IMG/VR virus record: IMGVR_UViG_2695420699_000010
Strand: one strand, 5' to 3'
Source of the DNA: a virus
Taxonomy: Duplodnaviria > Heunggongvirae > Uroviricota > Caudoviricetes
DNA: 4,033 nucleotides
The translations under genes were made by a program, and so were the position numbers. The notes beneath the pieces were generated by a model that was not told the origin of the DNA, ran no database searches, and saw only the letters and a list, made by a program, of their open reading frames with translations. Each line of letters starts with the position of its first letter. Position 1 is the stretch's first letter. Of this stretch, positions 1 to 4,033 are shown one piece after another.

Positions 1-168
1 CATGACAAAGTCATCGGGCATTATCTGAACATAAAACACTATCAATAAGTTGGAGTCATTACCGAGGCTATCTGCCTCAGGCATGAACACCAAAAGGCAG
101 ATAGAGAAAAGCCCCAGTTAACATTACGCGTCCTGCAAGACGCTTAACATTAATCTGAGGCCCAATCT

Positions 169-381
169 ATGTCTCACAAATGTAGGTTAGCCTCTTACGT
201 GCCGAAAGGCAAGGAGAAGCAGGCTATGAAGCAGCAAAAGGCGATGTTAATCGCCCTGATCGTCATCTGTTTAACCGTTATAGTGACGGCACTGGTAACG
301 AGGAAAGACCTCTGCGAGGTACGAATCCGAACCGGCCAGACGGAGGTCGCTGTCTTCACAGCTTACGAACCTGAGGAGTAA
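169..381 (+). CDS. mok-like in-frame N-terminal extension of the hok reading frame (70 codons); possible regulatory/coupling ORF
   Basis: ATG at 169 preceded by GAGG (157-160) with 8-nt spacing; same frame and same stop as the hok ORF. This mirrors the Mok/Hok arrangement as I recall it for chromosomal hok loci. Whether it is translated is not determinable from sequence. Confidence 0.4.
   Translation: MSHKCRLASYVPKGKEKQAMKQQKAMLIALIVICLTVIVTALVTRKDLCEVRIRTGQTEVAVFTAYEPEE
226..381 (+). CDS. hokD: Hok/Gef family type I toxin (small membrane-active peptide, 51 aa), HokD/RelF-like
   Basis: ATG 226 with AAGGAG (212-217) 8 nt upstream; TAA stop 379-381. Product MKQQKAMLIALIVICLTVIVTALVTRKDLCEVRIRTGQTEVAVFTAYEPEE has the Hok signature: hydrophobic N-terminal helix followed by the conserved TRKxLCEV.R...EVAxF.AYE core. 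Symbol assigned from recalled similarity to E. coli HokD/RelF, not from a search. Confidence 0.85.
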   Translation: MKQQKAMLIALIVICLTVIVTALVTRKDLCEVRIRTGQTEVAVFTAYEPEE

Positions 382-388
382 GAGACCA

Positions 389-410
389 GGCGAGGGAGAA
401 ATCCCTCGCC
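389..410 (+). other. Perfect 9-bp stem with GAAA tetraloop immediately 3' of the hok stop (RNA stability or fold-back element candidate)
   Basis: GGCGAGGGA (389-397) / GAAA loop (398-401) / TCCCTCGCC (402-410), exact reverse complement. No U-tract follows, so it is not itself a classical terminator. Confidence 0.45.
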
Positions 411-449
411 ACCTCTCATGTGTCAGGCATCCTCAACGCACCCGCACTT

Positions 450-476
450 AACCCGTTTCGGCGGGGTTTGTTTTTT
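450..476 (+). terminator. Intrinsic terminator closing the hok transcription unit
   Basis: Stem AACCCG (450-455) pairing with CGGGTT (462-468, one G-U pair), followed by a T-rich tract TGTTTTTT (469-476). Lies about 70-95 nt past the hok stop. Confidence 0.55.
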
Positions 477-548
477 CCTGGCATTCTGGTTTACAATTCG
501 CACGCCAGCCTGAACAACTGGCACCTGCTGCGCCAGCAGAGACAGCCG

Positions 549-827
549 ATGGCGCACGATACCAAATTACACAATTCTGATGATTCTGCCGTCTTTGCCA
601 GCAGGCGCGGACGGTGTTTTCACGCATTCAAATCTGACTGGTACCAGCATCCCCCATGCACTGAAGAACAGGCCGAATGGCTCATTCAGTGTTACCGCAG
701 GCGCGGATGCGAGGTTAAAAAAGCCCTTAGCCTCGACTACCGTCACTGGATAATCTCCGTCAGGCCCCCTTACTCCGAACGGCCACCGCGTCCGTCCCGC
801 ACATTCCAGCAACGGATCTGGAGGTAA
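549..827 (+). CDS. Small prophage protein of unknown function (Rem-like by position), 92 aa
   Basis: Six-frame ORF 420-827. ATG 549 is preferred as start because the GTG-420 extension would span the terminator at 450-476. Stop TAA 825-827 overlaps the next gene's start. Gene order hok, small ORF, DUF968 recalls hokD-rem-ydfU in E. coli Qin prophage, but this is from memory. Arg/Pro-rich composition and no clear SD lower confidence. Confidence 0.5.
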   Translation: MAHDTKLHNSDDSAVFASRRGRCFHAFKSDWYQHPPCTEEQAEWLIQCYRRRGCEVKKALSLDYRHWIISVRPPYSERPPRPSRTFQQRIWR

Positions 828-828
828 T

Positions 829-1878
829 GTGCGGGTATTACTTCGACCTGTTCTGGTGCCGGAACTCGGTCTGGTTATCGTTAAGCCAGGCCGTGAATCA
901 ATGTCAGCATTCCATAACGGCAGAATACTGGTGGAGCCGGAACCAAAAAGCATGCGCGGCCTGCCATCCGGAACCGTTCCTGCCGTTCGCCAGCCGCTGG
1001 CGGAAGACAAATCTCTGCTGCCATTTTTCAGCGACGAGCGGGTAATTCGTGCCGCTGGCGGTGCCGGTGCACTGTCTGACTGGTTATTGCGTCACGTTAA
1101 ATCCTGCCAGTGGCCTCATGGTGACTATCATCACAGTGAAATCGTCATACATCGTTACGGCACCGGCGCGATAGTGTTGTGCTGGCACTGTGACAACCAG
1201 CTGCGCGACCAGACATCAGAATCACTCGATCAACTTGCTCAGCAGAATCTGGTTGCCTGGATGATTGACGTCATCCGTCACGCAATAAGCGGTACGCAGG
1301 AGAGGGAGTTATCGCTGGCCGAATTATCCTGGTGGGCGGCCTGCAATCAGGTGGTGGATGCACTACCTGAGGCAGTAGCGCGTCGTTCGCTGGGATTACC
1401 AGCGGAAAAAATCCGCTCCGTATACCGTGAGAGTGACATCGTACCGGGAGAACAGACAGCCATCAGCATACTGAAGCAGCGCACAAAAAATATTGCGCTG
1501 CCACTTCACGTCCACCAGCAACAAAATCCATCACAGAAAAAAACGGTTGTCAGTATCGCCGTTGATCCGGAGTCTCCTGAATCGTTCATGAGGCGGCCTA
1601 AACGTCGCCGTTGGGTTAATGAGAAATACACGCGCTGGGTAAAGACACAGCCGTGTGCGTGTTGTGGTAAGCCAGCTGACGATCCGCATCACCTGATTGG
1701 TCATGGTCAGGGGGGGATGGGAACAAAGGCCCACGATATTTTCACGCTACCGTTGTGCCGGGAACATCACAACGAACTTCATGCTGACCCGCTGGAGTTT
1801 GAGAAAAAGTACGGCTCTCAGGTTGAGTTAATTTTTCGTTTTCTTGAGCACGCCTTTGCAACTGGCGTGCTCGGGTAA
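829..1878 (+). CDS. DUF968-like prophage protein (YdfU-like) with C-terminal Cys/His HNH-like zinc-binding motif, 349 aa
   Basis: Long uninterrupted ORF. GTG 829 with GGAGG (820-824) 4 nt upstream and overlapping the upstream stop (TAATGTG); alternative start ATG 901 (MSAFHNGR...). C-terminus QPCACCGKPADDPHHLIGHG...LPLCREHHNELH (nt ~1651-1790) is a CxCC...HH...C..HH pattern. Position between replication genes and rusA/Q is typical of nin-region genes in lambdoid phages. Confidence 0.85.
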   Translation: MRVLLRPVLVPELGLVIVKPGRESMSAFHNGRILVEPEPKSMRGLPSGTVPAVRQPLAEDKSLLPFFSDERVIRAAGGAGALSDWLLRHVKSCQWPHGDYHHSEIVIHRYGTGAIVLCWHCDNQLRDQTSESLDQLAQQNLVAWMIDVIRHAISGTQERELSLAELSWWAACNQVVDALPEAVARRSLGLPAEKIRSVYRESDIVPGEQTAISILKQRTKNIALPLHVHQQQNPSQKKTVVSIAVDPESPESFMRRPKRRRWVNEKYTRWVKTQPCACCGKPADDPHHLIGHGQGGMGTKAHDIFTLPLCREHHNELHADPLEFEKKYGSQVELIFRFLEHAFATGVLG

Positions 1879-1890
1879 AAGAGGTGACTG

Positions 1891-2250
1891 ATGCTCATAG
1901 ATTTGGTTTTACCTTACCCGCCGACGGTGAACACTTACTGGCGACGCCGTGGCAGCACATATTTTGTATCAAAAGCCGGGGAGCGTTATCGCCGGGCAGT
2001 GGCGCTTATTGTTCGCCAGCAGCGACTGAAATTAAGCCTGTCCGGACGGCTGGCAATAAAAATTATTGCAGAGCAACCGGATAAGCGCCGCCGTGACCTG
2101 AACAATATTCTGAAAGCACCGCTGGATGCGCTGACGCACGCGGGGTTGTTAATGGACGATGAGCAGTTTGATGAAATCAATATTGTACGTGGCAAGCCAG
2201 TATCTGGTGGACGGCTGGAGATAAAAATTACAGAGGTGGGGTGTGCATGA
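1891..2250 (+). CDS. rusA: Crossover junction endodeoxyribonuclease RusA (Holliday junction resolvase), 119 aa
   Basis: ATG 1891 with AAGAGG (1878-1883) upstream. Product carries the RusA hallmarks: N-terminal LPYPPTVNTYW, central PDKRRRDLNNILKAPLDALTHAGLLMDDEQ (catalytic Asp cluster), and C-terminal GGRLEIKITE. These parallel E. coli RusA (...[30 protein letters not shown]...GGRLELTITE) as recalled. Confidence 0.93.
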   Translation: MLIDLVLPYPPTVNTYWRRRGSTYFVSKAGERYRRAVALIVRQQRLKLSLSGRLAIKIIAEQPDKRRRDLNNILKAPLDALTHAGLLMDDEQFDEINIVRGKPVSGGRLEIKITEVGCA

Positions 2251-2936
2251 ATAACCAGTATTTACAGTTTGTTCGTGAGCAACTCATGATTGCCACTGCG
2301 GATCTCAGTGGGGCGACAAAAGGTCAACTGGAAGCCTGGCAGGAAAATGCCCTGTTCGATACAGGGCGTTACAGACGCAAAAAAATTCGTTACCGCGATG
2401 AGGTAACCGGAAAAATGATCACGCGGGATAATCCCCCAATCCCGGGTAAACAATCACTGGCGAAAGGCTCATCAATTGCCCTGGTCAGTCCTGTTGAGTT
2501 TGCAACATCATCGTGGCGGCGTACCCTTCTGGAACTGGAAGAACATCAGAAGGCGTGGTTGTTGTGGTGTTATGGCGGAAACATTTGCTGGGAGCATCAG
2601 ATCGCGATAATGCAGTGGGTGTGGAATGAATTTAAAACTCAGTCTGGTACCAGAAAAATTGCAGTGAAAACGCTGGAGCGTGTGAAGAAGTTGATCTGGC
2701 TGGCGGCACAGGATGTCAGAGGATGGGTTACCGGGTGTGAGGTCTACCAGAGACAGGAGCTTGCCAGACTGTGTGGAGTTAAGCCTGATAACTGGAGCCA
2801 TAATTATGCGAACTACTGGCGTGAGATGTGCGATATTTTTAAGCGCCTCGATAGAGAATCCTTGATTTGCTCCGTGAAAATAAGAGCGCAACAAAAAGCG
2901 ACCTTTTCACGACGAGATATTGCAAAAGTCAATTAA
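2247..2936 (+). CDS. Putative late-gene antitermination protein Q (lambdoid Q-type), 229 aa
   Basis: ORF immediately after rusA; ATG 2247 overlaps the rusA stop (ATGA), with GAGGTG (2234-2239) upstream; alternative GTG 2241. Followed within 90 bp by a promoter-like element and a strong intrinsic terminator, the canonical Q / pR' / tR' layout. Assignment is mainly by synteny and size; I could not confirm the Q family by motif. Confidence 0.72.
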   Translation: MNNQYLQFVREQLMIATADLSGATKGQLEAWQENALFDTGRYRRKKIRYRDEVTGKMITRDNPPIPGKQSLAKGSSIALVSPVEFATSSWRRTLLELEEHQKAWLLWCYGGNICWEHQIAIMQWVWNEFKTQSGTRKIAVKTLERVKKLIWLAAQDVRGWVTGCEVYQRQELARLCGVKPDNWSHNYANYWREMCDIFKRLDRESLICSVKIRAQQKATFSRRDIAKVN

Positions 2937-2948
2937 ATCGCGTATGTT
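2920..2948 (+). promoter_or_regulatory. Candidate late promoter (pR'-like) overlapping the 3' end of the Q gene
   Basis: TTGCAA (2920-2925), 17-bp spacer, TATGTT (2943-2948); predicted start near 2955. A second -10-like TATAAA sits at 2952-2957. Sequence-only prediction. Confidence 0.3.
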
Positions 2949-2997
2949 TCGTATAAATCTGATATTTTGCCTATTTTGTACGCGATGGCAAAGTAAG

Positions 2998-3025
2998 AAA
3001 AAAACTGCCGCCAGGCGGTTTTTTT
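2998..3025 (+). terminator. Strong intrinsic terminator (tR'-like) downstream of Q
   Basis: A7 (2998-3004), stem CCGC (3008-3011) / loop CAG / GCGG (3015-3018) with flanking G-T closure, then T7 (3019-3025). The A-run/T-run symmetry makes it potentially bidirectional. Confidence 0.7.
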
Positions 3026-3071
3026 ATGTCCGAAAATCGCGTCAGTACAGTAAACGCGCTGGCGGCGGTGA

Positions 3072-3366
3072 ATACCGGTCTTTCAGCTTGCTGGCTTTTT
3101 CGACAAGAGTTATTGGTGTGTCACGTTAACCGGAAAAAGGAAAGTTTGAGAAACGCGATCTGGCACAGGCGGTTATTAATGCTGCCTACCTGGTGGCCTG
3201 TGCAGATGGTGAATGTGAGGCTTCCTAGAAATCGAAGATCGAACAGGTACTGCGTAATCAGCCTGCGCTGTCCGCGTTTACGTCAGAAATAATTGAGCCG
3301 GAAGAGCGCAAGGTGCTGGAAGAGATTGCCGGTGTTCTGGGTCTTCGTCTGGAGAATCACCTGTGA
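3072..3366 (+). pseudogene. Decayed TerB-like (tellurite-resistance TerB domain) gene: frameshifted, with an in-frame amber stop
   Basis: One frame gives ...AGFFDKS... (3072-3149). The next frame gives GKFEKRDLAQAVINAAYLVACADGECEAS, then TAG (3226-3228), then KSKIEQVLRNQPALSAFTSEIIEPEERKVLEEIAGVLGLRLENHL, stop 3364-3366. The FFDK start, the hydrophobic-A-x-ADG-x-x-x-x-E core and the C-terminal acidic-E..IA..LG pattern resemble TerB as I recall it. No single intact frame exists. Confidence 0.4.
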
Positions 3367-3494
3367 CGGTAAAACTGCGCCTGACTGTGGCTGCACTCCT
3401 GCTGTTTCTGGTGGTGATGGTGGATTTCACCAGCAGAATCATGTCGGTGCTGGCGGATGGGGTGCTGGTCTGCGGCATTGTGGTATTGCTGTAG
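3363..3494 (+). CDS. Hypothetical 43-aa hydrophobic (membrane) peptide, GTG start overlapping the upstream stop
   Basis: GTG 3363 overlaps TGA 3364-3366 (GTGA); GGAG (3351-3354) 8 nt upstream; stop TAG 3492-3494. Product VTVKLRLTVAALLLFLVVMVDFTSRIMSVLADGVLVCGIVVLL is almost entirely hydrophobic, consistent with one or two transmembrane helices. It is absent from the supplied ORF track, most likely because of its short length. Confidence 0.35.
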   Translation: MTVKLRLTVAALLLFLVVMVDFTSRIMSVLADGVLVCGIVVLL

Positions 3495-3711
3495 CCGGTG
3501 ATAAAAAGAAACAGCCTGCATAATGCTTGATTTTTTTATTTGCTGTTTATTAAAAACACTTCTGCATGGTGAATCCCCCTGTGCGGAGGGGCGACTGGTG
3601 TAGGTAGCATTTATTATGTTATAGGCAAGCCGACGCGGGTTCAGTGACACCGGCTGAATTCACCGGGAGGCACCCGGCACCATGCAAGAAAAAGAATGTG
3701 CATGCAAACAT

Positions 3712-3736
3712 GCCCCTCTCCGGAGGGGCTTTTTTT
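3712..3736 (+). terminator. Intrinsic terminator (+ strand)
   Basis: GCCCCTC (3712-3718) / loop TCCG / GAGGGGC (3723-3729), a perfect 7-bp GC-rich stem, followed by T7 (3730-3736). Confidence 0.65.
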
Positions 3737-3742
3737 ATGGGT

Positions 3743-3768
3743 AAAAAATGCCCGAATGGGTTCGGGCA
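3743..3768 (-). terminator. Intrinsic terminator (minus strand), convergent with the + terminator at 3712-3736
   Basis: On the + strand: A6 (3743-3748) then a perfect 8-bp stem TGCCCGAA (3749-3756) / loop TGGG / TTCGGGCA (3761-3768). On the minus strand this reads hairpin followed by UUUUUU. Confidence 0.5.
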
Positions 3769-3803
3769 ATAGCATGAGATACTGATATTGTTGTGTTGTT
3801 ATC
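3743..3803 (-). ncRNA. Candidate small RNA (~60 nt) on the minus strand, antisense to the late-region leader
   Basis: Minus-strand promoter-like element: -35 TTGCGC (+ coordinates 3834-3839), 18-bp spacer, -10 TAAAAT (+ 3810-3815). Predicted transcript AUAACAACACAACAAUAUCAGUAUCUCAUGCU is A/C-rich and unstructured, then ends at the minus-strand terminator hairpin plus U6 (3743-3768). Purely predicted. Confidence 0.25.
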
Positions 3804-3829
3804 GTGTGGATTTTAACCAGGGTTTATCA

Positions 3830-3856
3830 GGCTGCGCAACTGCGTGGCCTTTTTTC
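3830..3856 (+). terminator. Possible intrinsic terminator (+ strand)
   Basis: Stem GGCTGCGC (3830-3837) / loop AACT / GCGTGGCC (3842-3849), 8 bp including two G-U pairs, followed by TTTTTT (3850-3855). Overlaps the proposed minus-strand -35. Confidence 0.45.
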
Positions 3857-3864
3857 ATTTCTTG

Positions 3865-3907
3865 GGCTGTAGTCCCCGAGTGTCATTCAGGCTTCCGGAC
3901 TACAGCC
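3865..3907. repeat. Perfect 11-bp inverted repeat with 21-nt spacer in the leader of the downstream late gene
   Basis: GGCTGTAGTCC (3865-3875) and GGACTACAGCC (3897-3907) are exact reverse complements. No U-tract on either side, so it is not a terminator; candidate protein-binding site or RNA processing/translation-control stem. Confidence 0.6.
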
Positions 3908-3955
3908 AGCCCACTCCATATCTGATTTAATACACTATCCCGGCCGGGAGGAATA

Positions 3956-4033
3956 ATGACATTTAAACATTATGATGTTGTCAGGGCGGCGTCGCCGTCA
4001 GACCTTGCGGAAAAGCTGACACACAAACTGAAA
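3956..4033 (+). CDS. 5' end of a late-region gene (small conserved phage protein, possibly DUF1737-like); truncated by the window edge
   Basis: ATG 3956 with GGGAGG (3946-3951) 4 nt upstream; open to the end of the window. Product begins MTFKHYDVVRAASPSDLAEKLTHKLK. The family assignment is a recollection, not a search result. Confidence 0.55.
   Translation, partial: MTFKHYDVVRAASPSDLAEKLTHKLK

Follow-up and report, generated by a model that had tools for sequence, protein, structure and literature searches.

What occupies the short interval between the late antiterminator gene Q and the lysis genes of this prophage, and can it still encode a protein? The window, by which we mean the whole 4,033-nt stretch of DNA analysed here, belongs to an E. 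coli lambdoid prophage, of which it forms the late-regulatory region (Table 1). An earlier note, made from the sequence alone, had read positions 3026-3366 as a decayed TerB-like cargo gene in the place where Stx phages carry stx, and had attributed its broken frame to a pseudogene, to homopolymer errors or to a suppressed amber codon. From homology searches and comparison with related prophages, we found that 3139-3366 is very probably a non-functional relic of tciA, the TerB-family gene of the tciA-tciB accessory pair.

Table 1 Features of the window, with positions counted from its first letter
Feature	Position	Strand	Basis or remark
sok RNA	53-231		Rfam-type match, 84 bits
hokD	226-381		annotated hokD in L003
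DUF968/HNH protein	829-1878		
RusA	1891-2250		
Late antiterminator Q gene	2247-2936	+	phrog_304, E = 3e-103
Untranslated late-operon leader	3001-3143	+	90% identity to L006 2501-2642
Intrinsic terminator	3007-3025	+	terminator scan and direct sequence reading
Deletion 1 junction	3139-3143	+	blastn against L003, junction sequences
tciA remnant part 1	3139-3290	+	family positions 17-68 of the 143-aa family; HMM, tblastn, DNA alignment
Amber TAG	3226-3228	+	translation, intact proteins, DNA alignment
Deletion 2 junction	3290/3291	+	comparison with L003
tciA remnant part 2	3291-3366	+	family positions 120-143, TGA stop 3364-3366; HMM, alignment
tciB (DUF3927)	3363-3494	+	PF13064, E = 4.8e-12; phrog_1470 'TciB-like', E = 2e-21
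STnc100 and AgvB region	3538-3742 (+) and 3743-3804 (-)		Rfam; each ends at a terminator-like hairpin
nanS-p type esterase start	3957-4033		collinear with the relatives' 1,851-nt gene

TerB homology is confined to one reading frame

A full-length query was rebuilt from the longer allele of the closest relative found, the prophage of strain 2014C-3011 (L003; 95.6-95.9% identity), and was used for a protein database search. It returned many intact 143-aa proteins (e.g. P0001, P0002 and P0007), grouped in clusters with 108-848 members, which read MFGIFGKKARRAA.EIKKFEKRDLAQAVINAAYLVA(C/Y)ADGECEASEKAKIEQ.... The intact homologues that the earlier note had hoped for exist: many E. coli proteins of 143 aa and the TciA of phages JLK-2012 and Evi. 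The reconstructed protein matches phrog_632 'tellurite resistance' (E = 5.6e-69) and is 98.6% identical to the TciA of Escherichia phage JLK-2012 (AFB75444.1); phage records name the gene tciA and its DUF3927 neighbour tciB.

All 120 homologues were compared with the window by tblastn (word size 2, E up to 10). We also searched its six frames with an HMM of the family, trained on 87 full-length homologues (filters off, E up to 1000). The tblastn E-values reach 1e-34 and the HMM gives E = 7.8e-36, which bears out the presence of a TerB-family remnant in the interval. All significant tblastn alignments lie in one frame and start at 3133 or 3142, corresponding to homologue residues 14-18, and the HMM matches a single frame in two pieces, HMM positions 17-68 (86.8 bits) and 120-143 (26.0 bits). 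The N-terminal residues of the homologues found no tblastn match in the other frames of 3026-3130, and the filter-free HMM search left the other two forward frames empty, its sole extra match being on the minus strand at -3.0 bits. TerB homology spans about 3139-3363 in that one frame only, and we rejected the earlier proposal that two frameshifts, near 3070 and 3130, stitch several frames into a protein of about 110-120 aa.

In the three-frame forward translation, the homologous frame reads ...KFEKRDLAQAVINAAYLVACADGECEAS, a stop, KSKIEQVLRNQPALSAFTSEIIEPEERKVLEEIAGVLGLRLENHL and a second stop. Scored against PF05099, the remnant reaches 20.6 bits (E = 5.8e-4), below the gathering score of 24.4 bits, and the reconstructed full-length ancestor reaches 55 bits (E = 1.2e-14). 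Despite this sub-gathering Pfam score, the family HMM match of the remnant makes its descent from the TerB family certain. The frame retains only family positions 17-68 and 120-143, is interrupted by the in-frame TAG and has no usable start, and no started ORF holds a complete TerB domain (about 118 profile positions). On its upstream side, the tciA frame is shut by an in-frame TAA at 3127-3129; after it, the sole in-frame ATG, GTG or TTG before the amber is the GTG at 3193, which gives a peptide of ~10 aa.

The DNA upstream of the remnant is a late-operon leader

The stretch 3001-3143 is late-operon leader and not tciA, because it is 90% identical to the segment downstream of Q in Stx2a phages (Table 1). 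In the Stx2a-converting phage LC567829 (L006), the matching leader lies between Q and a 65-aa ORF, which is followed by a DNA methylase, three tRNAs and stx2A, with no tciA there. Of 5,426 E. coli genomes, 2,871 contain the leader, which there mostly lacks annotation. It carries a TerB signal in no frame by Pfam, tblastn or HMM. The frame-2 and frame-3 segments of the earlier note fall inside it. A peptide 'GFFDK' in another frame was considered as a diverged N-terminus and discarded; it has no profile support and no Pfam match, and its DNA is that of the Stx2a-phage leader.

The terminator consists of a GC-rich hairpin, GCCGCCAGGCGG(T), with an A run before it and a T run after it, and is common to the Stx2a phage leader. 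Its position suggests a tR'-like terminator that would be read through under Q. The segment from the Q stop to the terminator (2946-3027) would be the source of a short pR'-to-tR' transcript; its Rfam matches are all sub-threshold (AgrB 24.8 bits, isrK 19.2 bits), and within it only the part from the terminator hairpin onward is common to Stx2a phages.

The relic lies in the cargo slot between Q and the lysis genes

The Q gene marks the upstream edge of the cargo slot. L003 and a further relative, L002, have a collinear 690-nt gene annotated 'bacteriophage antitermination protein Q'. At the other end, the nanS-p gene is annotated in relatives as a SASA family carbohydrate esterase or a DUF6645 protein, and holin and lysozyme genes lie beyond it. 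The gene order of the window, together with this continuation in relatives, shows that the label of a Q-to-lysis cargo slot was correct: the remnant lies 3' of Q and the terminator and 5' of nanS-p and holin. The slot is also that of stx, as the earlier note had supposed, since the series of Q, leader, ORF, methylase and tRNA(CAT)/tRNA-Arg that precedes tciA in L003 precedes stx2A in L006. The position thus has the features of a lambdoid late-operon cargo ('moron') slot on both sides. Elsewhere in the window, a hok/sok type I toxin-antitoxin locus spans 53-381.

Two deletions and one nonsense codon disable the gene

The collinear blocks found by blastn against L003 mark out the two deletions of the window copy. 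Window 64-3143 corresponds to L003 1501-4580, window 3141-3290 to L003 6486-6635, and window 3291-4033 to L003 6792-7516. The first gap, deletion 1, is 1,905 bp long (L003 4581-6485); it took the 65-aa ORF, the methylase, tRNA(CAT) and tRNA-Arg(TCT) as well as the ribosome-binding site, ATG start and codons 1-17 of tciA, and joined the leader to tciA codon 17. Both parental breakpoints carry AAAAAG, in GGGAAAAAG/ACATG and ATTAAAAAG/TTTGA (the slash marks the breakpoint), which points to deletion 1 as microhomology-mediated. The second gap, deletion 2, took out 156 bp (L003 6636-6791) without shifting the frame, at a cost of 52 codons (family positions about 68-119). It removed the residues between the slashes in ...SEI/NAIS...ADGE/IEPEE..., and its breakpoints are without microhomology.

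The third lesion is the amber codon. Intact 143-aa proteins have Glu at this site (...GECEASEKAK...) and the DNA alignment shows the codon GAG, so the amber replaces a Glu codon (GAG to TAG) and interrupts the homologous frame exactly where the earlier note had placed it. Of the anatomy drawn in that note, the decay and the amber hold, the frameshifts do not, and both deletions, the 5' one of 1,905 bp and the in-frame one of 156 bp, had been overlooked; the real lesions are two deletions and one nonsense codon.

The downstream partner tciB is still open

The tciB gene encodes a 43-aa hydrophobic peptide, annotated WP_001344632.1 in relatives, and its frame is still open. It starts with the GTG at 3363, which shares bases with the TGA of tciA (GTGA), and a GGAG of its own lies at 3351-3354. 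A TerB-family gene overlapping a DUF3927/TciB gene in this manner is the tciA-tciB module as found in JLK-2012 and Evi. Here tciB is 12 codons shorter than the 55-aa form because of a TGG to TAG change at 3492-3494, a second amber in the same two-gene module and the same lineage. The relatives L003, L008, L010 and L011 have TGG at this site, and the 43-aa and 55-aa forms are both RefSeq proteins. Two Rfam matches above the gathering score lie directly 3' of tciB: STnc100, at 154 bits, and AgvB, a prophage anti-GcvB sRNA, at 96.5 bits. AgvB is overlapped by a weaker match to AsxR.

The lesions recur among E. coli prophages

When 5,426 complete E. coli genomes were searched by megablast, 2,352 proved to contain the region. 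Most often it is labelled there as a 'tellurite resistance TerB family protein', flagged as a pseudogene for its internal stop, with a 'DUF3927 family protein' after it; O111:H8 strains have the window's exact allele under the label 'hypothetical protein, internal stop'. To count each lesion, we used exact 30-mers spanning it in the complete genomes, with the variable base placed so that every 28-base seed covers it. Junction 1 occurs at 638 places in 502 genomes. Junction 2 occurs at 43 places in 43 of the 5,426 genomes, nearly all of them O111 STEC and including the reference strain 11128; the exact double-deletion allele is likewise present in 43 complete genomes, for the most part O111 STEC. 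For the TAG allele the count is 990 places (576 genomes) and for GAG in the same flank 70 places (66 genomes), in a sample dominated by clonal STEC lineages and with GAG alleles that have other flanking variants left out.

Junction 1 is also present with GAG (L010, L011) and TAG is present without junction 1 (L003), indicating that the lesions have been reshuffled by recombination among prophages. The TAG alleles compared differ mainly by mosaic recombination, with few private changes, too few for dN/dS. Relatives carry other independent lesions, showing that tciA decays repeatedly. These include a change from A6 to A7 in codons 7-8 (L003, L012), one A lost from an A5 run (different runs in L009 and L012), a tciA copy truncated beside the mom-com gene pair (L012), and an IS1203/IS629-type element between junction 1 and the amber in strains E2855 and SD134209. 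The L012 copy (3397-4589, NZ_CP027591.1) comes from a second prophage in the same genome as L003 and is a GAG-allele tciA with two homopolymer frameshifts. In strain E2855 (L013 1826-3039, NZ_AP018796.1), the element is inserted in a tciA remnant of the double-deletion allele.

Discussion

The nonsense codon and the two deletions relative to intact alleles, and their recurrence in 43-576 complete genomes, bear out the pseudogene option among those left by the earlier note, and in NCBI RefSeq/PGAP annotation the allele is already listed as pseudogenic, with an internal stop. The three lesions are a G-to-T nonsense mutation, a 1.9-kb deletion between short AAAAAG repeats that fused the leader to codon 17 with the loss of ribosome-binding site and start, and an in-frame deletion that cut 52 codons out of the middle of the TerB domain. 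Judged by what is left of the reading frame, no TerB protein is producible from the window copy. The relic DNA is probably still passively transcribed within the Q-antiterminated late transcript and may serve at most as a 5' untranslated region of tciB, which keeps its own Shine-Dalgarno, GTG start and open frame. The relic would persist because it is small, neutral and placed between modules that are swapped as blocks among lambdoid prophages.

Could the gene nevertheless be alive? The suggestion of readthrough, by a suppressor tRNA or in a programmed manner, would have a functional TerB-like protein still made, and it draws on the wide spread of the TAG allele, on relatives such as L003 where the stop is the sole lesion flagged by annotation, and on the second amber that ends tciB early in the same lineage. 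L003, however, also has the A7 frameshift relative to the ATG-start form, and intact alleles use an ordinary GAG for Glu. ARAGORN found the window to be free of tRNAs. In the four loci of relatives that were scanned, none of the tRNAs has a CUA anticodon, and those beside the gene carry CAT, TCT, TCG, GTT and TCC; we rejected a suppressor tRNA on these grounds. Suppression could in any case not rescue the window copy, because its start, ribosome-binding site, codons 1-17 and 52 internal codons are missing; readthrough is thus extremely improbable. The idea of an intact gene whose apparent lesions stem from faulty assembly or from homopolymer sequencing errors fares still worse, with a probability close to nil. 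The short A and T runs on which the earlier note based it are indeed present, near 3095-3099 and 3134-3138, but the sequence round them is not tciA, and none of the lesions is a single-base indel: one is a base substitution and the other two are large deletions. Such error is excluded by the recurrence of identical junction 2, junction 1 and TAG in 43, 502 and 576 independently sequenced complete genomes, respectively.

A new gene might instead have taken the place of tciA, in an 88-aa ORF (3026-3292) or another overprinted frame. The 88-aa ORF is the longest open frame of the interval and its ATG follows directly on the terminator; yet it adjoins the terminator T run with no Shine-Dalgarno, has no Pfam match, and consists in its 3' half of tciA read out of frame. 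In L001 and L011, an indel just past the ATG shuts the frame after 8 codons. With no family match and no conservation in close relatives, we consider a functional gene in this frame very unlikely. Two facts sit less well with a neutral relic, namely that TAG is far commoner than GAG in the same background and that the 156-bp deletion is in frame, for which the chance is one in three. The dominance of disabled tciA might reflect selection against TciA in STEC lysogens, for example through a cost during late gene expression. Alternatively, the remnant RNA might have gained a cis-regulatory role on tciB or on the downstream STnc100/AgvB sRNA region. We regard both readings as very unlikely. The selection reading rests on the 990 against 70 places and on at least five other independent lesions, and clonal sampling with hitch-hiking explains the TAG and GAG counts equally well. 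Clonal sampling and hitch-hiking suffice for both the frequent inactivation of tciA in STEC and the second amber in tciB, and the neutral relic of tciA remains our preferred reading.

A decayed phage tciA (TerB, PF05099) in a known cargo slot, flagged as such in RefSeq, was already known, and nothing here is new in kind. The present result corrects the anatomy of that pseudogene and names the original cargo as the tciA-tciB pair. Its value is modest, as an example of a Q-to-lysis slot that is partly eroded (65-aa ORF, methylase, tRNAs and the tciA 5' end), by microhomology deletions here and by IS insertions in relatives, with the flanking regulatory RNAs and tciB surviving. The 156-bp deletion is a lineage marker for an O111 STEC prophage. 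It is also mildly notable how often STEC prophages inactivate tciA, and that a second amber (TGG to TAG) shortens tciB.

Lambdoid and P1-like phages carry tciA-tciB as late-expressed cargo. The closest counterparts of the window copy are the intact TciA of JLK-2012 and Evi and the clusters P0001-P0007 of 143-aa E. coli 'tellurite resistance TerB family protein' sequences, to which the retained codons are orthologous, with 88-96% DNA identity and 92-96% amino acid identity over family residues 17-67 (tblastn). JLK-2012 and Evi have the gene in the same slot, from Q and tRNAs to nanS-p and the lysis genes, and with the same GTGA overlap with tciB; compared with intact TciA, the window copy is a pseudogene without codons 1-17 and about 68-119 and with TAG for Glu. 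What the pair does is documented in our literature search only by homology-based names and by one essentiality call, from a CRISPRi screen in which P1 tciA/B/C scored as non-essential to the lytic growth of the phage (PMC10695390). A PADLOC search gave no significant defence-system match (best PDC-S48, 15.3 bits, E = 0.002, with no stretch passing alone), and we did not assign tciA to a defence system. The P1 TciA shares 52.8% identity with the full-length reconstruction and is also paired with a TciB/DUF3927 peptide, but its locus, whose gene names are homology-based, lies outside any Q-to-lysis slot. More distantly, the reconstructed protein resembles TerB of the ter operon, matching PF05099 (E = 1.2e-14) and the NMR structure of Klebsiella pneumoniae TerB (2JXU; E = 4.3e-08, residues 15-137); unlike that TerB, tciA is a stand-alone phage gene without terZACDE neighbours. 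With the stx2AB cargo of Stx2a-converting phages, tciA shares the insertion slot; the genes are unrelated and have their position alone in common.
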